From contig JBJMMR010000042.1 in assembly GCA_045804645.1 (NCBI GenBank), forward strand, positions 18,184-82,183: a DNA stretch of 64,000 nt. The letters run 5' to 3'. Within the stretch, counting starts at the first letter, position 1, and each line of letters opens with the position of its first letter. The stretch is from Chloroflexota bacterium (GTDB lineage: Bacteria > Chloroflexota > Limnocylindria > Limnocylindrales > CSP1-4). The notes under the pieces were generated by a model. That model saw only the letters and a program-made list of their open reading frames with translations. It had not been told where the DNA came from and ran no database searches. A program made the position numbers and the translations under genes. Of the stretch, positions 34,266 to 50,216 are shown piece by piece.

Positions 34266-35203
34266 CACGGAGCGGCGCCGGGACGCCGGACGGCGCCGTG
34301 ACAACGCCCGTACCACACGTCTCGTCTCGCGCCGACATCGACGCAGCGCTCAGCGCCCTGGTCGCGGCTCCGCCGCCACTCCTGCTCGTCATCGATTTCG
34401 ACGGCACGCTCGCGGTCGGGTCACGTGACCCTGCCCTCGCCCGCATCGAGCCGCTCGCCCAGCGCGCTCTGCGACGCCTCGCTGGCCATGCGACCCGACG
34501 GCCGGACCGCCTCGTCCTCGCGGTACTCACCGGACGCCTCGTCGCGGACGTGGCGACGCGGGTCCGGGTCGGTGGTATCGAATACCTGGGCGACCACGGT
34601 CTCGAGCACGGGCGCCTGCCGCGCGGTGGGCGTGCGGAACGGCTGGTCGTCACGACCGACCCCACGTTCGATGTCCACCGCGACACGGCGGAGACGCTCG
34701 CGACGGCCGTCGCCGCGCAGCTCGGCGCGCCACCCTGGCTGTTCGTCGAACGCAAGGGGCCGTCCGTGGCGTTCCACGTGCGCCAGGCCGAGGACATCCC
34801 GGCAGCGCGTGCCGCCGTCGTCGAAACGATCGACGCCGTCGAGCGGCGCCTCGGTCTCGGACATGGGCTCGCGCATTACCGGGGTCGGTCGGTCGTCGAT
34901 CTCCGTCCGAAGGACGCCGGTGGCAAGCGCGAGGCGGTCGAGGAGTTGGTCGCGCGTGACCGGCCTGGCGGCGTCGCGGTGCTCGGCGATGAGATGAGCG
35001 ATATCGACGCCTTCGAGGCCGTCCTCGCTGCACGGACGGCCGGCGAGATCGTCGGCGTGACCGTCGCGGTCCACGGGAGCCGATCTGCGCCGACGGAGCT
35101 GCTCGCGCTCGCCGATCTCCAGCTCCGTGGGGCACACGAGGTGGGTCGCTGGCTGGTCGGCCTCGCGCGGCGTCTCGAGGCAGAGGGGGCGCGAGGTCCC
35201 TAG
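34262..35203 (+). CDS. otsB: Trehalose-6-phosphate phosphatase (HAD-IIB)
   Basis: 313 aa, GTG start; HAD motif I LLLVIDFDGTL, motif II, …GDEMSDIDAF (motif IV DD); overall OtsB-like. Confidence 0.75.
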   Translation: MTRSGAGTPDGAVTTPVPHVSSRADIDAALSALVAAPPPLLLVIDFDGTLAVGSRDPALARIEPLAQRALRRLAGHATRRPDRLVLAVLTGRLVADVATRVRVGGIEYLGDHGLEHGRLPRGGRAERLVVTTDPTFDVHRDTAETLATAVAAQLGAPPWLFVERKGPSVAFHVRQAEDIPAARAAVVETIDAVERRLGLGHGLAHYRGRSVVDLRPKDAGGKREAVEELVARDRPGGVAVLGDEMSDIDAFEAVLAARTAGEIVGVTVAVHGSRSAPTELLALADLQLRGAHEVGRWLVGLARRLEAEGARGP

Positions 35204-36696
35204 CCTGGGAGCGCGGAGATGGCTGCCGCGGCGCCTTCGGCGACCTGCAGCAGGGGCGTGGGCACCAGCCCGAACAGGATCGTGAGCGCCGTCGCGGCGG
35301 CCAGGCCACCCCATAGCAGCGCTCCGTGGCTCAGCGGAGGTGCGTCACTCTCCGGGTCGCGCATGTACATGTAGACGGCGACCCTGAGGTAGTAGAACGC
35401 GGCCAGCGCGGCGTTGAGGACCACGATCACGGCAAGGACGGTCAGCCACCCGCCGGCCTCGACCGCTGCGAGGATGACGTACGCCTTCGCCCAGAAGCCG
35501 GCGAGCGGCGGGATGCCGGTCAATGACAGGAGGAACAACAGCATCAGCGCCCCGAGCAGCGGTTCGCGCCGGCCGAGCCCCGAGAACGTGGCGAGCCCGG
35601 ACGTGACACCCGTCCGTTTCTGGAGCGCCGCGACCACCGCGAATGCGCCGAGGTTCATGAACGTGTACGCGGCGCCATAGAACAGCAGTCCCTGGAGACC
35701 GAGCAGCTGCCCCCCGGCGTACGCCGCGAGCCCGACGAGCATGTAGCCCGTGTGGGCGATCGAGCTGTACGCCAGCATCCGCTTGACGTTGTCCTGGGTC
35801 AGCGCGACGAGGTTCCCGACGGTCATCGTGAGCGCGGCGAGGATCATCACGACCGGCAACCACCATTCCGCGAGGGGCCCGAGCGCCTCGACGAACAGCC
35901 GGAGGATCAGCGCGAACGCGCCCACCTTCGGGCCGACTGACAGGTAGCCCGTGATGGGCGTCGGCGAGCCCTGGTACGCGTCCGGCGTCCAGTAGTGGAA
36001 CGGGACGGCCGCGATCTTGAACGCGACGCCCGTCGTCAGGAATGCGAGCCCGATCGCCAGACTCGCTTGGAGCGGCGCCTCGCCGGCGACGATCTGGCCG
36101 AGGATCTGGGTGACGCCCGGCCGCGATGGGTCGTCGCTGCTGATCAGCGTCGTCCCGGTGATGCCCCACACGAAGGCCAGCCCGAACAGGAAGATCGCCG
36201 AGCTGAACGAACCGAGGAGGAAGTACTTGATCGCCCCCTCGGTCGAGTAGGCGTCGGTCTTGTGGTAGCCGGCAAGCAGATAGCCCGGCAGCACCATCAG
36301 CTCGAGGCCGAGGAACAGCAGCAGCAGGTCGGCGGCACCGGCGATGAGCATCGCTCCGGTCATCGCGAAGATCAGCACGATCGCGAACTCGGCGATCGGC
36401 AGGCCGCGCGGCAGGAGGTAATCGGGGGCGAACACGATCGTCATCGCGACGATCGTGATGAACAGGACGTCGAGGAACGTCGTCAGCGCGTCGACCTTGT
36501 ACGAGCCGTTGAACGCTGTCGATGTCTCCGCTCCGACCTGGATCGTCACGAAGGCGGTGATGGCCAGGCCGATGAGTGCGGTCCCGATCGCCGGCCCGTC
36601 GCGACCGGGCCAGACGAGGTCGACGAGCAGCACTGCCGCTGCCGTGAGGACGGCCGCGATGAGCGGTGCGATCGTGACGAGATCGGCGAATGCCAC
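35200..36696 (-). CDS. nuoN: NADH-quinone oxidoreductase subunit N
   Basis: 498 aa antiporter-like subunit; …LLGSFSSAIFLFGLAFVWG…FKIAAVPFHYWTPDAYQGSPTP…; last gene of nuo operon. Confidence 0.9.
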   Translation of the reverse strand: MAFADLVTIAPLIAAVLTAAAVLLVDLVWPGRDGPAIGTALIGLAITAFVTIQVGAETSTAFNGSYKVDALTTFLDVLFITIVAMTIVFAPDYLLPRGLPIAEFAIVLIFAMTGAMLIAGAADLLLLFLGLELMVLPGYLLAGYHKTDAYSTEGAIKYFLLGSFSSAIFLFGLAFVWGITGTTLISSDDPSRPGVTQILGQIVAGEAPLQASLAIGLAFLTTGVAFKIAAVPFHYWTPDAYQGSPTPITGYLSVGPKVGAFALILRLFVEALGPLAEWWLPVVMILAALTMTVGNLVALTQDNVKRMLAYSSIAHTGYMLVGLAAYAGGQLLGLQGLLFYGAAYTFMNLGAFAVVAALQKRTGVTSGLATFSGLGRREPLLGALMLLFLLSLTGIPPLAGFWAKAYVILAAVEAGGWLTVLAVIVVLNAALAAFYYLRVAVYMYMRDPESDAPPLSHGALLWGGLAAATALTILFGLVPTPLLQVAEGAAAAISALPG

Positions 36697-38351
36697 TACG
36701 CCCCTCCGCCCTGTGGGACGACCGCTGTCTCGCGCCGCCGCCCGAGCGCCACGGCCACCGTCCGAGCGACGACCAGGAGCATGATCAGCGCGAGCCCGAT
36801 CACGACGACGATCGGATCCACCGGGATCGCCTGACCGGTGCGCGCCGAGACGAGGAACTCGTCGACGGAGCCCTGGATGAGGTCCAGCAGCAGGCCTGGT
36901 CGGACGCCGAACACGACGATAAGCGTCGCGAGCGGCACCAGCGTCAGGACTTCGATCGGCGTCATATCGGTCAGGTGGCCACCGAGGTTCTCGAGGAAGT
37001 CCGAGACCTCGCCGAAGACGACCCGCTGGTACATGAACAGCAGGTACCCCGCAGCTAGGATCATCGCGAACGCGGCGACCGCGGCCGCGGCGGGGCTCAC
37101 CAGGAACGTCCCGACCATACTCAGGAACTCACCCACGAACCCCGAAAGACCGGGCAACCCGGCCGACGCGAACACGAAGAAGCCGAAGGTCGCCGCCCAA
37201 ACGGGCAACCGGCCGGCGAGGCCTCCCATCTTGGCGATGGTCCGGTCATGCGTCCGCTCGTAGATCACCCCGACGAGCAGGAACAGGCCGCCCGTGATCA
37301 GGCCGTGGTTGATCATCTGCAGGATCGCACCCTGGACGCCCTGCTCGGTGAACACGAATGCTCCGAGCGTGACGAACCCCATATGGCTCACCGACGAATA
37401 CGCCACGAGCCGTTTGAGGTCGGGCTGGACGAGCGCGACGATGGCGCCGTAGATGATCGCGATGAGCGAGAGCACGATGATCGTCGGGGCGAAGGTCGCA
37501 GCAGCGTCGGGGAAGAGCGGGATCGCGAACCGCAGGAACCCGTACGCGCCGAGCTTGAGCAGGATCCCTGCGAGGATCACGGAGCCGGCGGTCGGGGCGT
37601 CGGTGTGCGCGTCGGGTAGCCAGGTGTGGAAGGGGAACATCGGGACCTTGATCGCGAAGGCGAGGAAGAACGCGAGGAAGGCACCGACCTGGAGCGCCGG
37701 CGCGAACCCCGAGCTCGCGGCGAAGTCGCGGAGCGTCACGAAGTCGAACGCGTTCGCCCACGACCCGGTGGCCGCCTGGTAGGCGAAGGCGGTCGCGAGG
37801 ATCGCCACCAGCATGAGCAGCGAGCCGACCAGCGTGTAGAGGACGAACTTGATCGTCGAGTAGATCCGGTTCGCGCCGCCCCAGATCCCGATGATCAGAT
37901 ACATCGGGACGAGGACCACCTCGAAGAAGATGTAGAAGAGGAAGAGGTCCAGCGCGAGGAAGACACCGATCATGCCGACCTCGAGCACGAGGAAGGTGAT
38001 CATGTATTCCTTGATCCGGGTCTGGATCGGGACCCACGAGGCGAGGATGCAGATCCAGGTCAACGTCGTGGTCAGCACGACCAATGCTGCCGACAGACCA
38101 TCGATGCCGAGCTTGTACTGGATCCCGAACACCGGGATCCAGTCGTATGCCTCGACGAAATCGAACTGGTTGCCCGCCGAACCCGCGTAGCCGATGAGCA
38201 TCAGCAGCGATGCCACCCACGTCGCGAGGGCGAACGCGAGCGCGGTCGGACGGGTCCACGAGGTCGGCAGGATCGCGACGACGAGCGCGCCGACCAACGG
38301 CAGGAACGTCACGATCGTGAGGATGCCGATCGGCAGCCCGTCGAGGGTCAT
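36696..38351 (-). CDS. nuoM: NADH-quinone oxidoreductase subunit M
   Basis: Start trimmed to MTLDGLPIGILTIVTFLPLVGALV… (the 791-aa ORF is a GC 5' extension overlapping nuoL); …FKVPMFPFHTWLPDAHTDAPTAGSVILAG…. Confidence 0.9.
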   Translation of the reverse strand: MTLDGLPIGILTIVTFLPLVGALVVAILPTSWTRPTALAFALATWVASLLMLIGYAGSAGNQFDFVEAYDWIPVFGIQYKLGIDGLSAALVVLTTTLTWICILASWVPIQTRIKEYMITFLVLEVGMIGVFLALDLFLFYIFFEVVLVPMYLIIGIWGGANRIYSTIKFVLYTLVGSLLMLVAILATAFAYQAATGSWANAFDFVTLRDFAASSGFAPALQVGAFLAFFLAFAIKVPMFPFHTWLPDAHTDAPTAGSVILAGILLKLGAYGFLRFAIPLFPDAAATFAPTIIVLSLIAIIYGAIVALVQPDLKRLVAYSSVSHMGFVTLGAFVFTEQGVQGAILQMINHGLITGGLFLLVGVIYERTHDRTIAKMGGLAGRLPVWAATFGFFVFASAGLPGLSGFVGEFLSMVGTFLVSPAAAAVAAFAMILAAGYLLFMYQRVVFGEVSDFLENLGGHLTDMTPIEVLTLVPLATLIVVFGVRPGLLLDLIQGSVDEFLVSARTGQAIPVDPIVVVIGLALIMLLVVARTVAVALGRRRETAVVPQGGGA

Positions 38352-40339
38352 CCCTGATTCCCCACGAGCAACAGGTACGAGCCCGCCATCACGATCAGCC
38401 CGATGGCGATCCCAAGTGCGTAGTTCTGGACGCGGCCGGTCTGGACGCGCCTGATGTTGCGGCCGGCGGTGACCGTCGAGCTGCCGATGCCATTCACCGT
38501 CCCGTCGATGACTTCGCGGTCGAACCACCACATCGCGTTCGCCAACCGGCCGCCGATGACGATGAACAGGAGGTGGTTGAGCTCGTCGAACCACCACTTG
38601 TTGAGGGAGGCCCGGTACAGGAACGACAGCCCCGGTCGCGCACTGATCTCGCGGACCGCCTCGGGTCGCGCTGGCAGGTGCAGGCCCGCGATGTCCGTCC
38701 CGAATAGCCGCCAGGCGATGACGACTCCGACCGCGGCGACCGCGACGCTCGCCCCGATCAGTGCACCGTCGATCCCGAACAGCTGGTACTCCGCCTCGGT
38801 GTGATGGAGCATCTCGACGGCCGGCTGGAAGACCGGCTCGAGCCACTGCGAGATGACGTTGGCGCCGAGCGGCAACCCGAGCGCGAGACCGAGCAGGGCG
38901 GATGGGATCGCGAGCAGGATGAGTGGCGTCGTCATCACGGGCGGCGACTCGTGGATCCTGTCCCAGAGCTCCTTCGGACCCCGGAACGAGCCCCAGAACG
39001 TCAGCCCCATCAACCGGAACATGTAGAACGCGGTGAGCAGGGCGACGAACAGGCCGATCGCCCAGATCCATGGGAATCCAAGCTTGAACGCTTCGCCGAG
39101 GATCTCATCCTTCGAGAAGAAACCGGCCAATGGCGGGATGCCAGAGATCGCGATCGAGCCGATGAGCATCGTGATGTAGGTGATCCCGATCTTCTTCGAG
39201 AGGCCACCCATCCGGCGCATGTCCTGCTCCTCATGGACGGCGTGGATCACCGAGCCCGAGCCGAGGAACAGCAGACCCTTGAAGAAGCCATGGGTCATGA
39301 GGTGGAAGATCGCCGCAGTGAACGCCCCGACGCCGAGCGCCGCGAACATGTAGCCGAGCTGCGACAGCGTCGAGTACGCGAGGACGCGCTTGATGTCGGT
39401 CTGGGTCATCGCGATCGATGCGGCGAGGATGGCCGTGAAGATGCCGATCGAGGCGACGACGACCATGGTCGACGGGGCGGAGGCGAACAGTGGATTCGCG
39501 CGGGCGACGAGGTACACGCCGGCGTTCACCATCGTGGCGGCATGGATCAGCGCCGAGACCGGGGTGGGGCCCTCCATCGCGTCGGGTAGCCAGACGTGCA
39601 GCGGGAACTGGGCACTCTTGCCCATCGCGCCGGCGAAGACGAGCAGGGCCACGATCGGGACGGGGATCGGGAACGCGACGAGCGTCGGCGACAACAGCGT
39701 GTCGAGGGACTGGCGGATGTCGAGCGTCCCGGTGTTCAGGAAGATCGCCATGATGCCGAGCGCGAACCCGACGTCACCCACGCGGTTGACGATGAACGCC
39801 TTCTTCGCCGCGAGGGCCGCCGAGCGCTTGCGATACCAGAAGCCGATCAGCAGGTAGCTCGACAGGCCGACGAGTTCCCACGCCACGAAGACGACGAGCC
39901 ACGAGTCCGCGAGGACCAGCAGCAGCATCGAGAACATGAACAGGTTGAGGTAGGCGAAGAACCGCCAGTATCCCGGGTCGTGACCCATGTACCCGATCGA
40001 GTAGATGTGGACCAGCAGGCCGATCGTCGTGACGACGATCAGGAGGCAGGCGGTCAGCGGGTCGACGAACAGCCCCAGGTTCACCTGGAAGCCGCCGGCT
40101 GGGATCCATGTCCACGGCCCGACCACGTAGCCGTGTAGCTCCTCGGAACCCTCGATGAGCGGCGCGGCCCCGGTCAGCACGTTGAAGACCGCGACCATCG
40201 CGATGACCCAGGCGATGAAGATGACCGCGACCGGTACCCAGTGCGCCTGCTTGCCGAGGCGTCGCCCGACGAGCGCCGTGAACAGGAATCCGGCTATCGG
40301 CAGGATCAGAAGGAGTGGCAGCAACGACGCCATGTCCAT
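38348..40339 (-). CDS. nuoL: NADH-quinone oxidoreductase subunit L
   Basis: 663 aa; …QFPLHVWLPDAMEGPTPVSALIHAATMV… and long C-terminal extension typical of NuoL. Confidence 0.9.
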   Translation of the reverse strand: MDMASLLPLLLILPIAGFLFTALVGRRLGKQAHWVPVAVIFIAWVIAMVAVFNVLTGAAPLIEGSEELHGYVVGPWTWIPAGGFQVNLGLFVDPLTACLLIVVTTIGLLVHIYSIGYMGHDPGYWRFFAYLNLFMFSMLLLVLADSWLVVFVAWELVGLSSYLLIGFWYRKRSAALAAKKAFIVNRVGDVGFALGIMAIFLNTGTLDIRQSLDTLLSPTLVAFPIPVPIVALLVFAGAMGKSAQFPLHVWLPDAMEGPTPVSALIHAATMVNAGVYLVARANPLFASAPSTMVVVASIGIFTAILAASIAMTQTDIKRVLAYSTLSQLGYMFAALGVGAFTAAIFHLMTHGFFKGLLFLGSGSVIHAVHEEQDMRRMGGLSKKIGITYITMLIGSIAISGIPPLAGFFSKDEILGEAFKLGFPWIWAIGLFVALLTAFYMFRLMGLTFWGSFRGPKELWDRIHESPPVMTTPLILLAIPSALLGLALGLPLGANVISQWLEPVFQPAVEMLHHTEAEYQLFGIDGALIGASVAVAAVGVVIAWRLFGTDIAGLHLPARPEAVREISARPGLSFLYRASLNKWWFDELNHLLFIVIGGRLANAMWWFDREVIDGTVNGIGSSTVTAGRNIRRVQTGRVQNYALGIAIGLIVMAGSYLLLVGNQG

Positions 40340-40342
40340 CGC

Positions 40343-40660
40343 CTACTGACGCATCGCGTCGTACTCATCCACAAGAGGCGTCTTCTTGTTGCGGTAGATG
40401 GCGATGACGATCGCGAGGCCGACGGTCGCCTCCGCTGCTGCGACAGCCATGACCATCAGCGCGAAGACGGAACCCTGCGCGACGGAATCAGCGCGCGGCC
40501 CGAACAGTCCGAACGCGACGATCGTGAGGTTGACGGCGTTGAGCATGAGCTCGATCGACATCAGCATGCTGATCGCGTTCCGGCGCGCCAGGAAGCCGAA
40601 CGAGCCGATGGCGAAGAGGATCCCCGACATGATCAGATACGTGTCGAGGCTGTCGCTCAC
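40343..40660 (-). CDS. nuoK: NADH-quinone oxidoreductase subunit K
   Basis: 105 aa, three TM; …[19 protein letters not shown]…[17 protein letters not shown]…. Confidence 0.9.
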
Positions 40661-41250
40661 GAGGGCCCGCCCGGTTCACGCTTCGCGAGGAAGACGCCCC
40701 CGATCACCGCGGCGAGCAGCAACACGCTCACGATCTCGAATGGGAACAGGAACTGCTGGAAGAGGATCCTCGACATGATCTCGGTGCCGAGGCGCGCCCC
40801 GCGCTCGACCTGACCCCAGTCGGTCGCGCTGACCGCGAGCGCGATCACGATCGCGACGACGATCGCGGCGATCGATGCAGGCCCGGCCTGGGTCTGGAAG
40901 ACCAGCCGCGTCGGCGCGTCCTTGGTCTGGGTGAGCATGATGGCGAACAGGATCAGCACGCTGATCGCGCCGATGTAGACGATGACCTGCGCGGCACCCA
41001 ACAACGGGACGCCCATCAGGACGTAGATCCCCGCGAGGGCCATGAAGCACACGACCATCGCCAGCCCGCAGCGGATGATGTCGCGCATCGTCACGACGAG
41101 CAGGCCCGAGCCGATCATCAGCGCGGCGAGCAGCCACAGCAGCACGTCGTCCCAGTCCTGGTGGAGGACGACGAGCATGAGGCCGGCGATCCCGAGGACG
41201 GCGCCCATGACGAGCAGCGCGAAGATGATCTGGGGGAGCTTCGCGAGCAC
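40657..41250 (-). CDS. nuoJ: NADH-quinone oxidoreductase subunit J
   Basis: 197 aa; …[22 protein letters not shown]… NuoJ pattern; overlaps nuoK start by 4 nt. Confidence 0.85.
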
Positions 41251-41252
41251 GA

Positions 41253-43892
41253 CTACTCGTGCTGACCCGGGCCGAGGGCGGCGACCGCCTCGTGCCCGTC
41301 ATGCCCGTGGCCGTTGCCGTTCGTGCGAGCGCTCGGAGCGATCCCTGTGAGCGTCGGGGGGAGGACCGGGAGCATCCGTGCCGGGTCATAGACGCGGCCC
41401 TCGATCTGCGCTCGCTCCAGCCAGTCGCGTTCGCGCCGGACGTACGTGACCTCGGTCTCCTTGTCGATCGCCGACAGCGCCATGAGGTCGATCATCGGCT
41501 CGGAGCGCCCGGTGTGGGAGAGCTCGAATTCGGTGCTGTCGCGGAGCGCGTCGTAGGGGCACGCGTCGACGCAGATCCCGCACAGGATGCAGCGGCTCTC
41601 GTCGACCTCGTACTTCTCGAGGACGCGCGGCTTCGGCATCAGGGCGCCGGTGGGACACGTCTCTGCACAGCGACCGCACGACACGCATGGGGTGTCGTTC
41701 AGGCTCATGTCGAGCGGCGTCGTCACGAGCGTGTCGAAGCCGATTCGCATGAAGTCGTAGCACGCCGCGCCGACGATCTCGGCGCAGACGTTGGCGCAGC
41801 GGCCGCAGTCGATGCAGCGCGATGGCTCGCGCAGGATGAACGCGTGCGAGTCGTCGCGGATGTAGTCGTGGTTGATGCCGGTGAACCGGTTCTCGGTGAT
41901 CGAGCGGTAGCCCGCGCCCTGGTGGTTGTCCGGCTCGAGCGTCTTGAGCGTCGTCCCGTACTCGATCCCCAGCCGGCGGAGGTCGCAGAAACCGATCGCC
42001 TCGCAGGTGCATTGGAGGCAGCGGGTCGACTCTGCCATCGCCTCCTCGCGGGTGTACGGCAGCTCGTACTCGATGTAGCTGTCGTTGCGCTGCTCGGCGG
42101 GGAGCGGCTTCAACCGGTAGCGCGGCTCCTTGATCTCGCCGGTGAACGGCACGATCGAGAGGAACTCGGGCTGCGGCTCGGCGAGGGTCTGACGCGTACG
42201 GATCGCGTCGAGGTCCATCCCCTTGAGGTAGGCATCGACCGCGTACGCCGCTCGGCGGCCCTCGGCGATCGCCTCGACGACGGTCGCGGCACCGATGCGC
42301 ACGTCGCCGCTGCCGAAGACACCCGCTCGGCCCGTGGAGAAGGTCACGGCGTCGGCCTTGAGCCGCCGGTTCTTGCTCGCCTCGACGCCCTCGTTACCCG
42401 GTTCGCTCGCCCAGCCGAGCTCGGGGCCCTGGCCGATCGCCAGGAGCACGCGGTCGCACGGGATCGTGAATTCCGTCCCGGGCGCTGGCTCCGGTCGGCG
42501 GCGACCTGATGCATCAGGCTCCCCGAGCTGCATCCGGATGAACTCGACGCCGGTCACGTTGCCGCCATCGTCGGTGATGACCCGCACCGGCCCGGCCTGG
42601 AAGATGGCGGTGACGCCTTCCTCGATCGCCTCGTGGACCTCGTCGGACGCCGGCATGTCCTTCATGTCCCGGCGGTAGACGAGCGTCACCTCGCTCGCGC
42701 CCTGACGGATGGACGTCCGCGAGCAGTCCATCGAGGTGAAGCCACCGCCGATGACGACGACCCGCTTGCCCGCGTGGTTCGGGTAGGGCAGGCCAAGGGT
42801 CGCGGTGCGCAGGTACTCGAGGCCGTCGAGCACCTCGGCCGCGTCCTCACCCGGGATCCCCAGCTTGTTCGTGTCGTAGCAGCCGATGGCGATGAGGACG
42901 GAGTCGAAGCCCTGGTTCGTCAGGTCGTCGAGCGTGAAATCACGCCCGAGTCCGGCGTCGGTGACGATCCGTGCCCCCAGCCGGGTGACCGACTCGTACT
43001 CGGCCTCGAGCACTTCCACCTTCGGGAGGCGGTATTGCGGGATGCCGTAGCGGAGCATGCCGCCGGGCGAGGGATCACGCTCGAAGACGGTGACCTCGTG
43101 ACCGGCGAGGAGCAGGTAGTACGCCGCCGCCATGCCGGCGGGCCCCGACCCGATGACGGCCGCACGCCGCCCCGACGTCGCCTGCTGCTCGAACGGGACC
43201 GGCGGATCGACATGCTCGTCGAGCATCGCGCGCAGGACCTGGTCGCCCGCGTAGCGGTGCGAGTCGCGGATCGCGATCGCCTCGTCGACCTCGTCGCGGC
43301 GGCAGTGCTCCTCGCACGGCGCCGGGCACACCCGCCCCAGCACGGACGGGAACGGGATCGTTCGCTTGAAGATCCGCGCGCTCTCGCGCCAGTTCGCCTC
43401 GGCGTTGGCCTTGAGGAAGCCAGGGATATCGATGTGACTCGGGCACTTGTTCTGGCAGGGCGGCAGGCAGTAGGCGTTGTGGTCCGAGAAGATCAGCTCG
43501 AGGTTGGTGCGCCGCAGCCGGCGGACCTCCTCGGTCTGCGTCTGGACCTTCATCCCGTCCTCGCACGAACGTGAGCACGAGATCGGCGGATGCTCCTCGC
43601 CCTCGACCTCGACGACGCACATCCGGCACGCGCCGAAACCCGGCAACTTCGGTTCGTAGCAGAGGGTCGGGATCTCGATCCCGTTGTCGCGACAGACCTC
43701 GAGGATCGTCTGGCCCTCGAAGCCCTCGACGACGCGACCGTCGACCTCGATGCGGATGCGCGGCGTCGACTGCGGTCGCTGCGGCGCCTGGGTATCGAGG
43801 AGCCGGTCGGCGAGGGCGTCACGCGTCGTCGCCGGGGTCGATGCCTCGGTCTCGGCGGCGCGCGGCTCGGGGCGTGCGAGGGTGTCGGTCAT
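41253..43892 (-). CDS. Composite Fe-S flavoprotein (879 aa): NuoG N-terminal [2Fe-2S]+[4Fe-4S] region with an inserted GltD-like FAD/NAD(P)H oxidoreductase domain, NuoG N4-cluster region, plus appended NuoI-like 2x[4Fe-4S] ferredoxin domain; no molybdopterin domain
   Basis: IRIEVDGRVVEGFEGQTILEVCRDNGIEIPTLCYEPKLPGFGACRMCVVEV… (NuoG N1b 2Fe-2S); LIFSDHNAYCLPPCQNKCPSH (His-ligated N5-type); VCPAPCEEHC + AAVIGSGPAGMAAAYYLLLAGHEVTVFERDPSPGGMLRYGIPQYRLPK + GKRVVVIGGGFTSMDC (glutamate-synthase small-subunit/GltD fold); NRFTGINHDY…CIDCGRCANVC (NuoG N4-like); CVSCGRCAETCP and CILCGICVDACP (NuoI/TYKY-like pair); His-rich tail. Confidence 0.7.
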   Translation of the reverse strand: MTDTLARPEPRAAETEASTPATTRDALADRLLDTQAPQRPQSTPRIRIEVDGRVVEGFEGQTILEVCRDNGIEIPTLCYEPKLPGFGACRMCVVEVEGEEHPPISCSRSCEDGMKVQTQTEEVRRLRRTNLELIFSDHNAYCLPPCQNKCPSHIDIPGFLKANAEANWRESARIFKRTIPFPSVLGRVCPAPCEEHCRRDEVDEAIAIRDSHRYAGDQVLRAMLDEHVDPPVPFEQQATSGRRAAVIGSGPAGMAAAYYLLLAGHEVTVFERDPSPGGMLRYGIPQYRLPKVEVLEAEYESVTRLGARIVTDAGLGRDFTLDDLTNQGFDSVLIAIGCYDTNKLGIPGEDAAEVLDGLEYLRTATLGLPYPNHAGKRVVVIGGGFTSMDCSRTSIRQGASEVTLVYRRDMKDMPASDEVHEAIEEGVTAIFQAGPVRVITDDGGNVTGVEFIRMQLGEPDASGRRRPEPAPGTEFTIPCDRVLLAIGQGPELGWASEPGNEGVEASKNRRLKADAVTFSTGRAGVFGSGDVRIGAATVVEAIAEGRRAAYAVDAYLKGMDLDAIRTRQTLAEPQPEFLSIVPFTGEIKEPRYRLKPLPAEQRNDSYIEYELPYTREEAMAESTRCLQCTCEAIGFCDLRRLGIEYGTTLKTLEPDNHQGAGYRSITENRFTGINHDYIRDDSHAFILREPSRCIDCGRCANVCAEIVGAACYDFMRIGFDTLVTTPLDMSLNDTPCVSCGRCAETCPTGALMPKPRVLEKYEVDESRCILCGICVDACPYDALRDSTEFELSHTGRSEPMIDLMALSAIDKETEVTYVRRERDWLERAQIEGRVYDPARMLPVLPPTLTGIAPSARTNGNGHGHDGHEAVAALGPGQHE

Positions 43893-45184
43893 CAGGATCC
43901 CGTGGCGGCGGCCGTGGTCGGCCGGCTATCAGGGTCGAAGGAGGAAGCGAAGTATCGCATCCCGCTGGTCAGCGGGAGGGTCGCAAGACGCTCGTGGTCG
44001 CATAGCGCGGAGGCGACGATGTCGTGTGCGAGATCCGTCGCGAGTCGCGCGTCCGCGGGCCGCAGGAGGCCGGCCTCGCGCCGCGCCACGATCTCGGCGA
44101 TGCGGCGCGTGCCGATCCGGCACGGGATCGACTTGCCGCACGCCTCGTTCGAGCAGAAGCGGGTGAGGACGCCGACGAGCTCGAGAAGATCGGTCCGATC
44201 ATCGACGACGACGATCGAGCCGGAACCGAGGTGGCCGCCGGCGTCGCGCAGCCCGTCGAAGTCGTACGGTGTCTCGAGGGCGTCGGGGGGCAGCAAGCCG
44301 CCCGACGGTCCGCCGACGAGCACCGCCTGCAGTGAGCGGCCCTCGGGCAGCCGGCCGCCGAGCTTGAGGACCTCGCGCAGTGGCGTCCCTAGCGGGACCT
44401 CCGCGACGCCGTCCTTGCCGGGGGTGCGCACCTGGACGAGGACCGTGCCAGGCGCCCGGGTGGAGCCCGTCGCGCGGAAGGCCTCGGAACCCTCGCGGAT
44501 GATCCACGGGACCGCGGCAAGGGTCTGGACGTTGTTGACGACAGTCGGCCGGTCGAAGAGACCGGTCTCCGCGGGGTGCGGCGGCCGCTGATCCGGCTGG
44601 CCGCGCTTCCCCTCGAGCGCTTTCAGCAGGACGGTCTCCTCGCCCAGCATGTAGGCACCCTGAACGGGCCGGACCGACATCGACAGTTCCATGCCGGACC
44701 CGAAGACGTCGTCACCGAGGTAGCCAGCGTCCATCGCGTTACCGATGGCGGCCGATAGCGTCGCGATGAGCTCGGTATCCTCGCCGCGCACGGCGATGAA
44801 CGATTCGCGTGCCCCGATCGCGCTGGCCGCGATGGCCGTGCCTTCCACCACCGCGTACGGATCGCGCATCATCAACGTCCGGTCGGTGTGCGACGCGGGA
44901 TCGGCGCCGTAGCCGTTCGCGACGACGTACCGCTGGTCGGCGTCTGTGCTCGCGGCCATGCGCCACTTGTCAGCCGTCGGGTAGCCCGCACCGCCACGGC
45001 CGCGCAGGCCGGATGCGGCGACCGCTGCGATCGTCCCGGCGCCCCCCAGCTCGCGGAAGGCCCGCTCGAGAGCGCTGAAGGCACCGTCGGCGACGGCAGC
45101 ATCGAGGTCCGTCGGGTCCTTGGCATCAGCGCGTGCAAGGAGGATGCGCGGCCACGCAGCCGGCGTCTTCAGGATCGTCACCAT
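43892..45184 (-). CDS. nuoF: NADH-quinone oxidoreductase subunit F (51-kDa, FMN/NADH-binding)
   Basis: 430 aa; GLRGRGGAGYPTADKW (NuoF FMN/NADH motif), …GYGADPASHTDRTLMMRDPY…, C-terminal 4Fe-4S N3 Cys motif …CGKSIPCRIGT…. Confidence 0.9.
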   Translation of the reverse strand: MVTILKTPAAWPRILLARADAKDPTDLDAAVADGAFSALERAFRELGGAGTIAAVAASGLRGRGGAGYPTADKWRMAASTDADQRYVVANGYGADPASHTDRTLMMRDPYAVVEGTAIAASAIGARESFIAVRGEDTELIATLSAAIGNAMDAGYLGDDVFGSGMELSMSVRPVQGAYMLGEETVLLKALEGKRGQPDQRPPHPAETGLFDRPTVVNNVQTLAAVPWIIREGSEAFRATGSTRAPGTVLVQVRTPGKDGVAEVPLGTPLREVLKLGGRLPEGRSLQAVLVGGPSGGLLPPDALETPYDFDGLRDAGGHLGSGSIVVVDDRTDLLELVGVLTRFCSNEACGKSIPCRIGTRRIAEIVARREAGLLRPADARLATDLAHDIVASALCDHERLATLPLTSGMRYFASSFDPDSRPTTAAATGS

Positions 45185-45185
45185 G

Positions 45186-45863
45186 TCAGGCCTGCGCGGA
45201 GGCGCCGGCGCGACGGCCTCCCTCGAGGGCGGTGCCGAGTGCGGCGAGGTATGCGGTCTCGGCCGGGCGGTGACGATCGACGGCGGCGACCTGGTCGGTC
45301 GCTGTCGGCGGCTCGAAACGAAGATGACCGTAGTAGCTCGCGGTCCCGTAGATGATCGCGTACCAGGCGCCGGTCCGGTGACTGATGCGCTTCAGCGCTG
45401 CGACCGGGAGGTAGCCATACGCGTCTTGCGTGGCTTCCAGGATCGGCAGCATGTCGGCGGGATCGAAGTCGTGCTCCTCGAGGATCCGGTCGACCTCGCC
45501 CAGGTCGATCGGCTCGTACGGCCGGAACGCGGGGTCCGGCACGGTGCGCCCTGACCGCCGCACCGCGGACTCTTCGCGCCGCTCACCGTAGGTCTCCGGT
45601 GGGCCCCAGTGGACGTGATAGCGGCCGCGCGTGTCGATGCCACCCATGTCGATGCATTCGATCGGGCACGCCTGGGCGCACTGGAAGCACGTCTCGCACT
45701 TGAGCGTGCCCCACTCGTCGTACAACAGCTGGAGTCGGCCGCGGAACTTGCCGGCGACGTCGGCTCGCTGTTCGGGGTACTTGATGGTCGCCTTCGGCTC
45801 GAAGAAGCGTCGAAGCGTAAGGGCCATGCCCTTCGCGATGCCGAGGCCAGGGACGAAGCTCAT
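45186..45863 (-). CDS. Fusion protein: degenerate NuoI (single CxxCxxCxxxCP motif) + NuoE N-terminal helical domain lacking the [2Fe-2S] thioredoxin-like part
   Basis: N-terminal 1-90 aligns to NuoI up to the first cluster motif CETCFQCAQACP, with no second motif in any frame. Residues ~125-190 (DLGEVDRILEEHDFDPADMLPILEATQDAYGYLPVAALKRISHRTGAWYAIIYGTASYYGHLRFEPP) align to the NuoE N-terminal domain. No Cys in the C-terminal 130 aa. Flanked tightly by nuoH and nuoF. Confidence 0.65.
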   Translation of the reverse strand: MSFVPGLGIAKGMALTLRRFFEPKATIKYPEQRADVAGKFRGRLQLLYDEWGTLKCETCFQCAQACPIECIDMGGIDTRGRYHVHWGPPETYGERREESAVRRSGRTVPDPAFRPYEPIDLGEVDRILEEHDFDPADMLPILEATQDAYGYLPVAALKRISHRTGAWYAIIYGTASYYGHLRFEPPTATDQVAAVDRHRPAETAYLAALGTALEGGRRAGASAQA

Positions 45864-45867
45864 CCGA

Positions 45868-47214
45868 TCACCGGCCGATCACGACGATCGCGGCCGCGGT
45901 CACGAACAGATTCAACAGCGACGCCGGTAGGAGCCATTTCCAGGCGAAGCCCATCAGCTGGTCGATCCGCACGCGCGGCAGCGTGCCGCGCATCCACACG
46001 AACGTGAACACGAGGACGTACGTCTTGAGCATGAACCAGAGGATACCGGCGACCCAGTTCAGCCCGATGTACGCCCATGCGAGCGCGATCGTGACGATGA
46101 ACAGGTTGGCCAGCGCGAAGCCGATCAGGAGCGCCTGCCACCACTTGATGCGCGAGCTCAGCAGCCAGAAGGGCGCGGCGAACAACAGCGTCAGGACCAC
46201 CGGAGCCAGCCCGATGATGAACAGCAGTCCGATGTTGAACGAGGCCGGGTCGAGGCTCAGCTGGACCTGCCAGGCTTCCGGGAACGCGAACGGGGCGTTC
46301 CAGCCGCCGAGGAAGAGCGTCACGAACAACGCCGATACGATGAAGACGTTCACGTACTCGGCGAAGAAGAAGAAGCCGAACCGCATCCCGGAGTACTCCG
46401 TCGCGAACCCGGCCACGATCTCGGAGTCCGCCTCCGTCAGGTCGAAGGGCGTGCGGTTCGCTTCGGCGGTCGCCGCGATGAAGAAGATCAGCGCGCCGAG
46501 CGGCTGTTGGAAGATGTACCAGTCGGTGAACCAGCCCTGCTGGTTCTCGACGATCTGATTGAGGCTCATCGTCCCGGCGAGCAAAAGCAGTCCGACGACG
46601 GACAGCGTGAGCGGGATCTCGTAGCTCACGATCTGAGCGGCGGCGCGCAGCCCGCCGAGCAACGAGTACTTGTTGTAGCTCGACCAGCCGGCCATCAGGA
46701 GCCCGACCACACCGAGCCCGCTGACCGCGAAGAAGTAGAGCAGCCCGATGTTGAGGTCGGCGCCGTAGAGGCCCGGCGCGAACGGGATGACGAGCAGCGT
46801 CATCACGCTGGCGAGATAGACGACGACGGGCGCCCACGTGAAGACCACAGAGTCGGCGCCGGTCGGCGTGAAGTCCTCCTTCATGAGGACCTTCAGTCCG
46901 TGGACCACGGACAGCAGCGACCCGAACGGCCCGACGCGGTCCGGCCCGATCCGAAGATTCATCAGGGCGATGATCTTCATCTCCATGTAGATGATCAGGA
47001 ATGCGGTCGGGACCGTGATCAGCAGGATGACCGTGGCGGCCACCACGAACCGGACGATCGGCAGGTTCGCAGCGAGGGTGTCGATCGCGAGCTGCCCGAA
47101 CGCCGTGATCAGGATGATCAGCGCTGCGATCCCGACGACCAGCAGCGGCACGAGGATGAACAGGAACTTCCCGGGCAGGGTCAGCCGGTTCCAGCCGCGC
47201 GAGACGACCGTCAT
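45868..47214 (-). CDS. nuoH: NADH-quinone oxidoreductase subunit H
   Basis: 448 aa; …GWSSYNKYSLLGGLRAAAQIVSYEIPL… and …RTPFDLTEADSEIVAGFATEYSG… NuoH signatures; N-terminal ~50-aa extension relative to typical NuoH. Confidence 0.9.
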   Translation of the reverse strand: MTVVSRGWNRLTLPGKFLFILVPLLVVGIAALIILITAFGQLAIDTLAANLPIVRFVVAATVILLITVPTAFLIIYMEMKIIALMNLRIGPDRVGPFGSLLSVVHGLKVLMKEDFTPTGADSVVFTWAPVVVYLASVMTLLVIPFAPGLYGADLNIGLLYFFAVSGLGVVGLLMAGWSSYNKYSLLGGLRAAAQIVSYEIPLTLSVVGLLLLAGTMSLNQIVENQQGWFTDWYIFQQPLGALIFFIAATAEANRTPFDLTEADSEIVAGFATEYSGMRFGFFFFAEYVNVFIVSALFVTLFLGGWNAPFAFPEAWQVQLSLDPASFNIGLLFIIGLAPVVLTLLFAAPFWLLSSRIKWWQALLIGFALANLFIVTIALAWAYIGLNWVAGILWFMLKTYVLVFTFVWMRGTLPRVRIDQLMGFAWKWLLPASLLNLFVTAAAIVVIGR

Positions 47215-47245: not shown

Positions 47246-48520
47246 TCACTTATCTACCCCGCCCATGATCGGATCGAGCGAGGCCATGATTGCCATGGTG
47301 TCGGCGACGAGATGCCCCGGCATCATCAGCCCGACCGACTCCAGATGCAGGAACGACGGGTCGTGGATCCGCATCCGGAACGGCTGGTCCGTTCCGTCAC
47401 TGATCGCGTAGACCGCGTACTGCCCTCGTGGCGCCTCGATGCCCGCGTAGGCGCGACCCGGACGCGGCCGAAGCAGCCGCGGCAGCTTCGCCATCACCGG
47501 GCCGTCGGGCATCTGGTGCAGGCACTGGTCGATGATGCGCAGGCTCTGCTTGATCTCGTCCATCCGCAGGAGGTAACGGGCGAGGCAGTCACCCTCCTGG
47601 CGCGTCGGGATGTCGAAATCGAGCTCCGGGTAGATGCTGTAGGGGTGTGCGCGACGCATGTCGAACGGCACCCCGGTCGCCCGGAGGTTCGGTCCGCTCA
47701 TCGTCATCCGTAGCGCCGTCTTCGAGTCGATCCTGCCAAGACCGCGCATCCGGCGGACGAAGATCTCGTTCTCGTTGAGCAGCGTGTTGCCGGCCTCGAT
47801 CTGCTCGGTCGCGTGGCTCATCCAGTCGCCGAGGCGGCTCATGAACTCGTGGTTCAGATCGCCGTTCACCCCGCCGATGCGGAAGTAGTTGAAGAGCATC
47901 CGCTGGCCGGTGAGCGAGGCGAGCATCTCGACGATCGTGTCGCGCTCGATGAACGACCACAGGATCGGCGTGAGACCCCCGAGGTCGAGGGCCATCCAGC
48001 CGAGGAACAGCGAATGGCTCGCGATCCGGTTCAGCTCCGCGGAGAGCACCCGGATGTATTCAGCGCGTCGCGGGACCTGGACGTCGAGCAGCTTCTCGAA
48101 CGCCATGACGCCGGGCCACTCGCAGAACAGTGCGCTGACGTACTCGAGCGGGTCGAGATAGGCGATCGAGTGGTGGTAGTCGGCGTTCTCGCAGAGCTTC
48201 TCGACGCCGCGATGCAGATACCCCAGCACGGGGTCCAGGTCGACGACCTTCTCACCGTCGAGCTTGAGGACGACGCGGAGCACGCCGTGCGTCGACGGGT
48301 GTTGCGGACCCATGTTGAGGAACATCTCGCCGTCTCGCAGCGTGTAGAACTCCGCCTCGCGCTCGGTTCGCGGCGGATACGGAGGCACCGGTTCGAACAC
48401 GCCCAGCTCGCGGTCGAGCTGGACGCGGGGGTCGTCGGGCGCGCCCGCGAAGGCGTCGTCGCCCAGGCTGCTCGTGCGCTGACTACCGGCGGCGTCGGGG
48501 CGGGGAGTGGTAGCGGTCAT
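47246..48520 (-). CDS. nuoD: NADH-quinone oxidoreductase subunit D (49-kDa)
   Basis: Start trimmed to MTATTPRPDAAG… (track ORF 5' extension overlaps nuoC); …LNMGPQHPSTHGVLRVVLKLDGE…ASLDPIMGGVDK. Confidence 0.9.
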   Translation of the reverse strand: MTATTPRPDAAGSQRTSSLGDDAFAGAPDDPRVQLDRELGVFEPVPPYPPRTEREAEFYTLRDGEMFLNMGPQHPSTHGVLRVVLKLDGEKVVDLDPVLGYLHRGVEKLCENADYHHSIAYLDPLEYVSALFCEWPGVMAFEKLLDVQVPRRAEYIRVLSAELNRIASHSLFLGWMALDLGGLTPILWSFIERDTIVEMLASLTGQRMLFNYFRIGGVNGDLNHEFMSRLGDWMSHATEQIEAGNTLLNENEIFVRRMRGLGRIDSKTALRMTMSGPNLRATGVPFDMRRAHPYSIYPELDFDIPTRQEGDCLARYLLRMDEIKQSLRIIDQCLHQMPDGPVMAKLPRLLRPRPGRAYAGIEAPRGQYAVYAISDGTDQPFRMRIHDPSFLHLESVGLMMPGHLVADTMAIMASLDPIMGGVDK

Positions 48521-48539: not shown

Positions 48540-49094
48540 TCACGTACCGGGACTGATCCGGCGGACCTTGCCGGTCGCGACGGTCTCACGTGGCGCGTGG
48601 GTCTGCTCCATGTGGCGGACGCCCGCACCCGGGGACCGGGCGGCGTCGTCGGCGAGGTAGAAGTCCTTGCGGAGCGGGAAGCTCTGATAGTCCGGCGGCA
48701 TGTAGATGCGCCGCAGGTCTCGGTTGCCTTCGAACGTGATCCCGAACATGTCGTAGGCTTCGCGCTCCATCCACTCGGCGCCCTTCCACATGAAGGTGAC
48801 CGACGGGACACGCGGGTCCTCGCGGGACAGGCCGTCGACGATGACGCGCAGCCAGTCCGGTGTCGTCGGGCTCCAGAGGTGGTACACGACCTGCATCACC
48901 TCGCCCGTATCGACGCCGCATAGATCGGCGAGGAACTCGAACGCGAACTCGGGTTCGTCGTGGAGCGCCGTGATCACCGGGACGACGTCACCGGCGCTGA
49001 TGCGCACCTCGGTCTCGTCATGGCGCTGCCGGACCGGGCCGGTCAGCTGGTCGCCGAAGCGCCGCTCGAGGCGGGCCTTGAACGATCGGTCCAT
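48540..49094 (-). CDS. nuoC: NADH-quinone oxidoreductase subunit C (30-kDa)
   Basis: 184 aa; …EREAYDMFGITFEGNRDLRRIYMPPDYQSFPLRKDF… NuoC signature. Confidence 0.9.
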   Translation of the reverse strand: MDRSFKARLERRFGDQLTGPVRQRHDETEVRISAGDVVPVITALHDEPEFAFEFLADLCGVDTGEVMQVVYHLWSPTTPDWLRVIVDGLSREDPRVPSVTFMWKGAEWMEREAYDMFGITFEGNRDLRRIYMPPDYQSFPLRKDFYLADDAARSPGAGVRHMEQTHAPRETVATGKVRRISPGT

Positions 49095-49095
49095 G

Positions 49096-49860
49096 TCAGA
49101 TCTGCGCGGGGACCGTCGGGCCGATCGGTCGCTCCGGCCAATGGCCGCGGCGATCCTTGACCAGCTGCTGGAGCTTCATCATCCCGAAGATGAGCCCCTC
49201 GGGACGGGGCGGGCAGCCGGGCACGTAGACATCGACCGGCATCACGCGGTCGATCCCCTCGACCGTGGAGTAGCTCCGCTTGTAGCGGCCGCCCGAGCAC
49301 GTGCAATCGCCCATCGCGACGCACCACTTCGGCTCCGGCATCTGCTCCCAGAGGCGGACGAGGGGTCCTGCCATCTTCGTCGTGAGCGTCCCCGCGACGA
49401 TTAGGACGTCGGCCTGGCGCGGGCTGGCGCGGAACGGGAACATGCCCCAGCGATCCATGTCGTTGCGGGACGTCGCGGCCGACATCATCTCGATCGCACA
49501 GCACGCGAGGCCCGACAGTAGCGGCCACAGGCTGTTCATACGGATGAGGTCGAGGACGTAGTCCGCCTTGGTCGGGATGACCTCGAGCGGACCGCTCCAG
49601 CGGGCGTTGTCGCGGCGCCCCGCACCGCTCGCCTCGAACTCGGCGAGGTGGGTGATGGTCGTGGGCTGACCACCCTCATAGGCCATCGGATCCACCGATC
49701 GCCAGAGCGTATTCGGGACGACGATCGGCGCCATGACCTCGTCGCCCGGTCGCGTCGCCGGCAAAGCCGGCTGCGCCGGCACATCGGACGGTATCTCGGT
49801 GGCGTCCGACGGTCCCGCTCCCAACCCGTCGGGGTTGGCGCGGTCCTCATTCACCGCCAT
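49096..49860 (-). CDS. nuoB: NADH-quinone oxidoreductase subunit B (20-kDa, N2 cluster)
   Basis: …[16 protein letters not shown]…[12 protein letters not shown]…[11 protein letters not shown] (four Cys of N2); start assigned to MAVNED (10-nt overlap with nuoA), alternative MAPIVVPN at ~49734; the 294-aa ORF start is an artefactual extension. Confidence 0.85.
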
Positions 49861-50216
49861 GTCAGGGCTCCCTTCCGCCACGCATACGCGAGGCCGAGCA
49901 ACAGGATCAGGACGAACACGACCATGCTGATGAACAGCCCGGCCGGGTTCAGATTGGGGTCTTTGAACACGATGGCCCACAGGTAGATGAAGATCACCTC
50001 GATGTCGAACGCGACGAAGAGCAGCGCGTAGATATAGAAGGACAGGCCGAATCGCCCATGGGTGTCGCCGTAGGTGTCGATACCGGACTCGTAGGGCAGG
50101 CCCTTGTGGACGTCACCCTTGTTCCGATGGGAGACGAGCCAGGCCGCCCCGATCGTAAGGAACACGAACGACACGCCGGCGAAGGCGAAGCCCACGACGT
50201 ACCAGAGCTGTTCCAA
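49851..50216 (-). CDS. nuoA: NADH-quinone oxidoreductase subunit A
   Basis: 121 aa, three TM; …[40 protein letters not shown]… NuoA signature; first gene of operon. Confidence 0.9.

Follow-up and report, generated by a model that had tools for sequence, protein, structure and literature searches.

A GltD-containing NuoG-like protein and a divided NuoI in a nuo operon of Limnocylindria suggest a hybrid complex I

The 64-kb stretch of Chloroflexota DNA analysed here, referred to below as the window (G+C content of about 69%), carries a nuo operon in which the place of nuoG, next to nuoF and nuoJ, is occupied by the gene of an 879-amino-acid (aa) protein, called G' in what follows. This operon probably encodes a hybrid respiratory complex I, in which three genes in the order C-B-A, of the type found in the transhydrogenases NfnABC and StnABC (the Bfu type), interrupt nuoI within a nuo cluster of 11 genes (A B C D H I J K L M N), and which would work as a proton-pumping NAD(P)H:quinone oxidoreductase. 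On the minus strand, the gene order is nuoA-B-C-D-H-[NuoI N-half::NuoE N-domain]-F-G'-J-K-L-M-N, with gaps or overlaps of 1-20 nucleotides (nt). No nuoI gene is found in the operon; one half of NuoI is encoded at the start of a 225-aa NuoE-like protein and the other one near the end of G'.

Architecture of G' and its soluble relatives

The open reading frame (ORF) of G' extends over 41253-43892 on the minus strand, with its ATG at 43892 and its TAG at 41253-41255, and contains no internal stop. The exact protein sequence is available at NCBI as MFL5685865.1, from a Chloroflexota metagenome-assembled genome (MAG). Along these 41253..43892 positions are encoded, in order, an N-terminal extension, a [2Fe-2S] domain, a His/Cys cluster region with Fer4_20, a GltD-type flavin adenine dinucleotide (FAD)/NADPH domain, a CxxCxC(x5)C motif, a two-cluster ferredoxin domain, the C-terminal half of NuoI and a variable tail. 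All 29 Fe-S cysteines are 100% conserved (68 genomes).

The NuoG/HydA-type [2Fe-2S] domain (residues 45-125; 43518..43760, minus strand) is matched by Fer2_4 (Pfam, residues 45-120, E 2.3e-21). Its ligands C78, C89, C92 and C106 are seen in the motif C78YEP...C89RMC92 and at C106, and its sequence identifies it as the predicted equivalent of the N1b cluster of complex I and of A1 in NfnA. The next block (residues 126-560; 42213..43517, minus strand) starts with the motif H138NAYC142LPPC146QNKC150 and the Fer4_20 region (residues 142-219, E 2.5e-17), and continues with the GltD/NfnL-type FAD and NADPH domain, where Pyr_redox_2 covers residues 244-545 (E 8.8e-30). The signature features of GltD and NfnL are all present, namely Fer4_20, the two GxGxxG Rossmann motifs, GSGPAG (248-253) and GGGFTS (382-387), and VYRR after the second one, the binding of the cofactors being a prediction. 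The conserved GGGxTxMD...VYRR pattern, common to StnC and NfnA, suggests specificity for NADPH.

A linker, the C625xxC628xC630x5C636 motif and a HydA/NfnA-type two-cluster ferredoxin domain follow (residues 561-750; 41643..42212, minus strand), and then the C-terminal half of NuoI/TYKY (residues 751-830; 41403..41642, minus strand), KYEVDESRC768ILCGICVDAC778PYDAL...TEFEL, which is matched both by TIGR01971 and by Arabidopsis TYKY. This region thus holds three ferredoxin motifs, C693IDCGRCANVC703 (motif A), C736VSCGRCAETC746P (motif B) and the last one, C768ILCGICVDAC778P. Fer4 is detected with motifs near 736-784 (E 1.1e-14), and Fer4_Nqo3 weakly matches residues 686-751. Among the NCBIfam models, the best is PRK12814, 'putative NADPH-dependent glutamate synthase small subunit' (residues 46-706). 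The NuoG models reach just the first 100-150 residues or so, TIGR01973 giving 97 bits over residues 48-146 versus a cut-off of 470, and no Pfam match to a molybdopterin domain was found in G'.

Residues 46-779 of G' can be aligned as a single block with residues 4-700 of NfnA in the Caldicellulosiruptor NfnABC complex (9BOV_A; E 1.3e-162, 546 bits), the [2Fe-2S] domain corresponding to the start of this alignment and the two-cluster ferredoxin domain to its end. The same residues match StnC of Sporomusa StnABC (8OH5_C; E 9.2e-144, 484 bits), and NfnA of Thermococcus sibiricus (9N5U_A) is the third structural match. The AlphaFold2 model of G', obtained from a 69-sequence alignment, has a mean predicted local distance difference test score (pLDDT) of 62, with a confident N-terminal domain and values of 80-95 in the GltD domain. 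When this model is submitted to Foldseek, the top matches are NfnA, StnC and the T. sibiricus NfnA (probability 1.00), followed by NfnL and GltD, with template modelling scores to these NfnL and GltD chains of about 0.77-0.79 (normalised to target length). These matches identify G' as homologous to the large subunit of NfnABC and StnABC, which are soluble transhydrogenases.

With these enzymes (9BOV/9BP5, 8OH5/8OH9, 9N5U), G' shares the [2Fe-2S] N-terminus, the GltD/NfnL FAD-NADPH insert and the two-cluster ferredoxin domain, with 34-38% identity over about 730 columns, and their C-B-A gene order is matched by the NuoE-like, NuoF-like and GltD-containing NuoG-like genes of the window. In contrast, NfnABC and StnABC are soluble tetramers, whereas the window genes sit inside a nuo operon. 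Their large subunits, of 950-1180 aa, carry a formate-dehydrogenase-like domain, which is missing in G' and replaced by half of NuoI. Their bifurcating BfuBC core includes the C1 [2Fe-2S] cluster in C and, in B, extra Fe-S domains, among them a C-terminal 2x[4Fe-4S] domain, none of which is found in the window subunits. A further difference concerns A7, the first cluster after FAD, which is coordinated in Csac NfnA by three Cys and by Lys170, the latter being aligned with His212 in G'. Lys is present at this position in 130 of the 138 family representatives, and His is invariant in both nuo-embedded lineages. The H212 codon is at 43257-43259 on the minus strand, and His is also observed in P0243, a relative from the Por-Bfu cluster described below. 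The replacement of Lys by H212 possibly tunes the cluster potential; it is in itself a handy signature.

The observation made in an earlier note, by reading the letters alone, holds, and its interpretation is supported in part. G' does sit at the nuoG position, the Pfam scan and the structure alignments both show a NuoG/HydA-type N-terminus into which a GltD-type FAD/NAD(P)H domain is inserted, no molybdopterin domain is present, and all the quoted motifs and the two Rossmann sites could be located. The domain scan that the note had suggested identifies the central region as a Pyr_redox_2/GltD fold, along with Fer2_4, Fer4_20 and Fer4. The likeness to Nfn and to bifurcating HydABC modules turns out to reflect real homology, seen with 9BOV_A and 8OH5_C for G' and with NfnB/HydB/StnB as the nearest relatives of NuoF. 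The ORF is genuine and not an assembly chimera, given its same-length orthologues, its conserved cysteines and the relatives of its C-terminal part in at least 483 species-representative genomes. The presumed novelty of the architecture has to be restricted. Cryo-electron microscopy of NfnABC/StnABC-type enzymes, published in 2023 and 2025 (PMC10482914, PMC11829005), had already revealed a GltD insert within a NuoG-like subunit, so the GltD-inside-NuoG topology is not new in itself. Its novelty for complex I stands insofar as no description of a GltD-containing NuoG in a quinone-type nuo operon, or of a split NuoI, was found in open-access papers and bioRxiv preprints, an absence that is not a proof.

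NuoI in two halves

An Arabidopsis TYKY fragment matches exactly two places in the window, which correspond to the two halves of NuoI, its residues 48-121 matching 41687..41487; no other NuoI-like sequence was detected by this search within the 64 kb. The N-terminal half spans about residues 1-82 of the 225-aa protein (45186..45863, minus strand; matches to TIGR01971 and 2Fe-2S_thioredx), with residues 12-75 covering positions 1-63 of the 121 positions of TIGR01971 (48.2 bits). It includes the motif C56xxC59xxC62xxxC66P, the four cysteines of which are 100% conserved (60 genomes). In G', residues 755-801 cover positions 71-117 of the same model (57.8 bits). Once spliced in silico, the two halves match TIGR01971 in one stretch, from position 1 to position 117 of 121 (99.2 bits, E 1e-28), and they are colinear with the TYKY/NDUFS8/NuoI chains of solved complex I structures (7AR7_I residues 23-146, E 1.7e-21). 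The join sits in the loop between the two half-ferredoxin motifs. To our knowledge, this would be the first case of a core Fe-S subunit divided along the pseudo-twofold axis of the ferredoxin fold, and we believe that the splitting of NuoI by insertion of an N-module is without precedent.

The soluble C-B-A operons help to delineate these motifs. Their A subunit, of 690 aa (650-700 aa in its relatives), ends right after motif B. Motifs A and B thus make up a two-cluster domain complete in itself, which leaves the last motif of G' in need of another partner. From this and from the homology to 9BOV, we infer that CVSCGRCAETCP pairs with CIDCGRCANVC as a HydA/NfnA-type two-cluster ferredoxin domain, equivalent to A2/A4. 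In the tail of G', only CILCGICVDACP and its flanks would be NuoI, and the C-terminal half alone, as judged from these alignments.

The earlier note had described the two motifs of the tail as a NuoI-like module. This holds for the last motif and its flanks, which are the C-terminal half of NuoI. The two tail motifs as one NuoI module are ruled out by the 9BOV/8OH5 alignment, by the split match to TIGR01971 and by the short relatives, CVSCGRCAETCP belonging to the A2/A4 domain. The note had overlooked the missing nuoI, the displacement of nuoH ahead of nuoE and the loss of the [2Fe-2S] domain of NuoE.

The division of NuoI bears on whether a single enzyme is encoded. One could imagine two separate enzymes, a soluble Nfn-like transhydrogenase and an 11-subunit complex I working without it, although its genes stand in the middle of the same operon. 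The 11-subunit nuo clusters without nuoEFG are indeed common, including in Chloroflexi (PMC3144371), and NfnABC is soluble elsewhere. However, judging from the 64-kb window, the membrane complex would then be left without NuoI, a subunit that all members of this enzyme family possess. Moreover, each NuoI half is part of the same polypeptide as a subunit of the module, the gene junctions are tightly coupled, with overlaps or gaps of 1-5 nt, and the gene order is invariant in two phyla. This makes the presence of two independent enzymes highly improbable.

A proposed electron path and competing readings

The membrane arm and the Q-module core look complete, with Pfam matches in one operon, all on the minus strand, for nuoA (49851-50216), nuoB (49096-49860), nuoC (48540-49094), nuoD (47246-48520), nuoH (45868..47214; 448 aa, NADHdh, E 6.4e-107), nuoJ (40657-41250), nuoK (40343-40660), nuoL (38348-40339), nuoM (36696-38351) and nuoN (35200-36696). 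The nuoH gene is located ahead of the N-module genes rather than after nuoG. The CC...C...CP cysteines of NuoB (N2) and the HPSTHG quinone-site motif of NuoD are both kept. The NuoE-like part of the 225-aa protein (about residues 119-187) consists of the N-terminal helical domain only, corresponding to positions 2-63 of the 145 of 2Fe-2S_thioredx, and no cysteine for the N1a/C1 [2Fe-2S] cluster is found in this protein after residue 70. NuoF (430 aa; 43892..45184, minus strand; Complex1_51K and NADH_4Fe-4S) is closest to NfnB (9BOV_B), HydB and StnB, with 304-312 bits versus 229-239 for the NuoF of Thermus and E. coli. Its alignment is limited to the core of 9BOV_B (residues 104-509 of 584), which implies that the additional Fe-S domains found at both ends of the bifurcating type are missing; its sequence points to an Nfn/HydB descent, with trimming. 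The flavin mononucleotide (FMN) loop RGRGGAG(Y/F), GAYxxGEET and VNNVQT are strictly conserved.

From the gene architecture, the homologies, the split and the conservation, which were computed or directly observed, we infer cluster assignments, an electron path, nucleotide specificity and proton pumping, which could be as follows. When mapped on Csac NfnABC, A1 would be held by C78/89/92/106, and A2 and A4 by motifs A and B. The candidate ligands of A7 are C150/C189/C193 and H212, while A3 and A6 would use H138, C142, C146, C197 and C625-C636. The two NuoI halves would reassemble into a two-cluster (N6a/N6b) domain, which would dock the NAD(P)H module onto NuoB, NuoD and NuoH. Electrons from NADPH would enter at the FAD of the GltD domain and travel over the counterparts of A7, A6 and A3, all three [4Fe-4S] clusters, to the A2 junction (equivalent to N4). 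Those from NADH would reach the same A2 junction through the FMN of NuoF, N3 and the [2Fe-2S] cluster. From A2, they would continue to A4, the second ferredoxin cluster, then to N6a/N6b in the split NuoI, to N2 and finally to quinone. Proton pumping would be ensured by the usual membrane arm, as assumed from its intactness.

In Csac NfnABC, electrons are described as following FAD-A7-A6-A3-A2-A1-B1-FMN, with A2-A4-A5 called a dead-end branch that is not functional (PMC11829005). Since the formate-dehydrogenase-like domain with A5 is replaced in G' by the C-terminal half of NuoI, after a 21-residue linker, A2-A4 is proposed here as the exit. In the Stn system, an enzyme deprived of the HydC-type [2Fe-2S] cluster no longer bifurcates but still oxidises NADPH (PMC10482914), and this cluster belongs to a conserved flavin/two-cluster site (PMC11829005). 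The C subunit of the window has no [2Fe-2S] cluster and its B subunit has no extra Fe-S domains, which means that the site of bifurcation has been lost. In Limnocylindria, we thus expect a simple NAD(P)H:quinone oxidoreductase with two inputs, and the window enzyme should not bifurcate, to judge from its subunit composition.

Several points weigh against this hybrid complex I. In the AlphaFold2 model, residues 628-879 of G' have a pLDDT below 50, so that the cluster pairing and geometry proposed for the tail are predictions from the sequence. The 99.2 bits of the spliced NuoI are just under the curated cut-off of 113.05, and the 21-residue spacing between motif B and the motif of the NuoI C-terminal half also fits an ordinary two-cluster ferredoxin. 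NuoF displays NGYGADP in place of NADE(S)EPG or NGDEGDPG throughout the lineage; the second N3 cysteine is replaced by Ser/Thr in its EACGK(S/T)IPC motif; and the equivalents of K202 and F205 are R/K and H, respectively. These active-site changes may mean an altered or weakened NADH site. Lastly, every carrier of this arrangement is an uncultured MAG.

A different wiring can also be considered, in which motif B (C736-746) and the last motif (C768-778) would form a one-chain dicluster ferredoxin, motif A and the CxxCxxCxxxCP motif of the 225-aa protein would hold one cluster each, and NuoI would be replaced rather than split. Fer4_7 does span residues 736-782 as a single dicluster domain, the 21-residue spacing is typical of clostridial-type ferredoxins, and extra conserved cysteines are present, C711 in G' and C70 in the 225-aa protein. 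Such a wiring is nevertheless quite improbable: 9BOV and 8OH5 have homologues of motifs A and B in their A2/A4 domain, the short relatives stop after motif B, C70 is absent in Thermoleophilia, and the sequences flanking the two halves are specific to NuoI and, once joined, match NuoI over its full length.

Another reading is a complex I using only NADPH, with a degenerate flavin site in the Limnocylindria NuoF, retained as a mere scaffold, and the FAD of the GltD domain as the sole electron entry. The conserved NGYGADP, the loss of one canonical N3 cysteine and the changed adenine-stacking positions, which are conserved across the lineage, go in this direction, as do the loss of the NuoE cluster and the 346 bits of NuoF against TIGR01959 (cut-off 559). 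On the other hand, the FMN loop, GAYxxGEET and VNNVQT are strictly kept, three N3 cysteines are 98% conserved with an extra one, C344, nearby in 75% of the genomes, and the strong purifying selection on the 430-aa NuoF argues for catalysis. The use of NADPH alone seems unlikely in view of these features.

The direction of electron flow deserves a similar comment. The enzyme might act as an energy-linked NADPH generator, running in reverse or sideways, with the proton-motive force and quinol, or NADH, used to reduce NADP+ at the GltD site, which would make it a membrane-coupled transhydrogenase. The soluble homologues are reversible transhydrogenases (PMC10482914, PMC11829005), and homology places the FMN and FAD sites on one Fe-S network. 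Complex I is known to be reversible. But no low-potential donor site remains in Limnocylindria, other NADPH sources are usual in aerobic heterotrophs, and nothing in the sequence sets the direction; we therefore give this function a low probability. The hybrid oxidising NADH and NADPH is retained as the probable assignment.

Distribution, known systems and neighbouring genes

More than 120 protein clusters have 82-95% identity to G' and the same length, and a scan with one genome per species detected relatives of its C-terminal part in at least 483 genomes. The loci were compared in the best 80 species genomes of these, almost all labelled as Chloroflexota or Limnocylindrales MAGs. The full order methyltransferase-B-C-D-H-IE-F-G-J-K-L-N is found in 50 of the 83 loci, the rest being partial subsets in the same order. 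The 225-aa protein has 2,930 homologues, of which the best 120 are 215-229 aa long, almost all of them 223-229. The arrangement is real and widespread in uncultured soil bacteria. An assembly chimera or a pseudogene, for which the unusual architecture would be the one argument, has a practically nil probability and is ruled out by same-length orthologues in hundreds of independently assembled genomes, including long-read contigs of more than 1 Mb, and by the conserved ligand cysteines. Some carriers (L007, L034, L079 and protein P0109) are labelled Patescibacteria, Saccharimonadales, Sulfomarinibacteraceae or Verrucomicrobiae, with sequences 81-94% identical (best segment) to the Limnocylindria form, and these off-lineage labels are probably binning or labelling errors. 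In P0069 (1075 aa, on an ENA contig of 1.57 Mb), G' is fused in frame to NuoJ (PF00499), probably because a stop codon was lost or through an error of sequencing; in the window, only 2 nt separate the two genes.

A second nuo-embedded form is found in MAGs labelled Thermoleophilia or Actinobacteria (P0142 and about 120 clusters, 808-880 aa), with G' relatives that are 42-48% identical. These Thermoleophilia (Actinomycetota) operons have the same gene arrangement and the same NuoI split, and their spliced NuoI pair reaches 112.8 bits versus the cut-off of 113.05. Their NuoE part is complete, with the four [2Fe-2S] cysteines, and their NuoF, of 630-638 aa, has the thioredoxin-like N-domain and the C-terminal two-cluster domain of the bifurcating HydB/StnB. 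The window version is thus a trimmed derivative, and the Thermoleophilia enzyme might bifurcate.

The Por-Bfu cluster at L086:5052-13150 is organised as porG-porD-porA-[half-ferredoxin::BfuC]-BfuB-[GltD-BfuA::half-ferredoxin::PorB]. Its BfuA, P0243 (1049 aa), bears the other half-ferredoxin and then a PorB-like thiamine pyrophosphate domain at its end. The halves best match NuoI positions 33-115, without the NuoI N-terminus. Since both NuoI-like halves are carried here by BfuC and BfuA, they are inherited as a pair. A set of 'short' relatives of 812-853 aa was not kept among the family members: P0128, P0149, P0168, P0188, P0210 and P0231 end with ...NN(V/I)DHCARL and are most likely formate-dehydrogenase-type StnC/NfnA-like proteins cut at a selenocysteine UGA.

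Canonical complex I (Thermus, E. coli, mitochondria) has in common with the window operon NuoA, B, C, D, H, J, K, L, M, N, and, as predicted for the window, an FMN subunit and a [2Fe-2S]/[4Fe-4S] chain towards NuoI. Its NuoI is one polypeptide with two CxxCxxCxxxCP motifs, whereas that of the window is distributed over two polypeptides. Its NuoG combines N1b, N4 and N5 with a molybdopterin-like domain, which G' lacks, carrying a FAD/NADPH domain, and its NuoE has the N1a cluster, which the window NuoE lacks; nuoH precedes nuoE in the window. In canonical complex I, the His-ligated N5 leads to N6a, whereas the equivalent in the window would face the GltD domain, the link to NuoI being presumably provided by the second ferredoxin cluster, which is lost in normal NuoG.

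Other combinations have been reported. Schut et al. (2022) predicted a 'Nuo-Bfu' in Geobacter, Deferribacteres, Planctomycetes and Nitrospirae, as well as an 'Mbh-Bfu' with an unexplained flavin subunit, in a text that mentions neither NuoI nor Actinobacteria (PMC9304861). Like the window operon, this Nuo-Bfu and the NUO-2 of Nitrospina and Kuenenia (PMC3578206) are uncharacterised complexes with a Bfu-type ABC module in the place of NuoEFG. They differ, according to the published descriptions, by their 14 subunits, with BfuABC in the middle of the cluster and a NuoG-like BfuA, and no GltD domain or NuoI split is mentioned. In the mbx-like and Mbh-Bfu systems (PMC4758237; PMC9304861), genome surveys similarly noted a GltD-type flavoprotein or a Bfu module in the place of NuoI, or close to it, in membrane modules that resemble complex I; Degli Esposti (2015) described mbx-like operons in which NuoI is substituted by a GltD-like flavoprotein. 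As described, these are of the hydrogenase or Mbx type and not quinone-reducing Nuo, and their descriptions do not report a split NuoI. In Chloroflexi, Spero et al. (2015) mentioned genomes that have 13 of the 14 nuo genes, 'missing only NuoG'. Current pipelines label the genes in question as 'FAD-dependent oxidoreductase', 'formate dehydrogenase major subunit' or 'subunit E', and these labels lead genome surveys to score such organisms as lacking NuoG and NuoI.

Complex I is generally taken as NADH-specific, with a fixed core of 14 subunits. The hybrid is a variant of it built from known modules, a snapshot of how an ancestor with 11 subunits acquired soluble NAD(P)H modules. It is conceivable, although slightly short of probable, that it represents a class of complex I that has so far escaped recognition, although frequent in two soil lineages that are themselves abundant, and in which NuoI is a heterodimer of half-domains, a tethered Nfn-type head provides a second flavin (FAD) site for NADPH, and the Fe-S route goes from A2 to A4 to N6 rather than from N4 to N5 to N6a as in every known complex I. 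As the Thermoleophilia version keeps the bifurcation site, NADH, NADPH, ferredoxin, quinone and the proton-motive force could then all be coupled by a single enzyme of the membrane. If true, a complex I with a built-in NADPH dehydrogenase would change the modelling of redox balance and respiration in Limnocylindria and Thermoleophilia, and the 'dead-end' A2-A4 branch of NfnABC would find a function.

Some minor features of the operon and its surroundings can be added. NuoH is unusually long, 448 aa versus 371-375 aa in Thermoleophilia; it is extended at its N-terminus and has some 80 additional residues in the part matched by Pfam. NuoB (about 254 aa) and NuoD (about 424 aa) also have N-terminal extensions. 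A Methyltransf_28 (PF02636) gene lies just upstream of nuoA (50582-51772, minus strand), in the same place as in at least 51 Limnocylindria loci; it is not found there in the Thermoleophilia operons. The mitochondrial complex I assembly factor NDUFAF7/MidA belongs to this family. Further upstream, a 349-aa ORF (51782-52831, minus strand) has no Pfam match, and the L001 locus contains an equally long ORF in the corresponding place, which Pfam does not match either.

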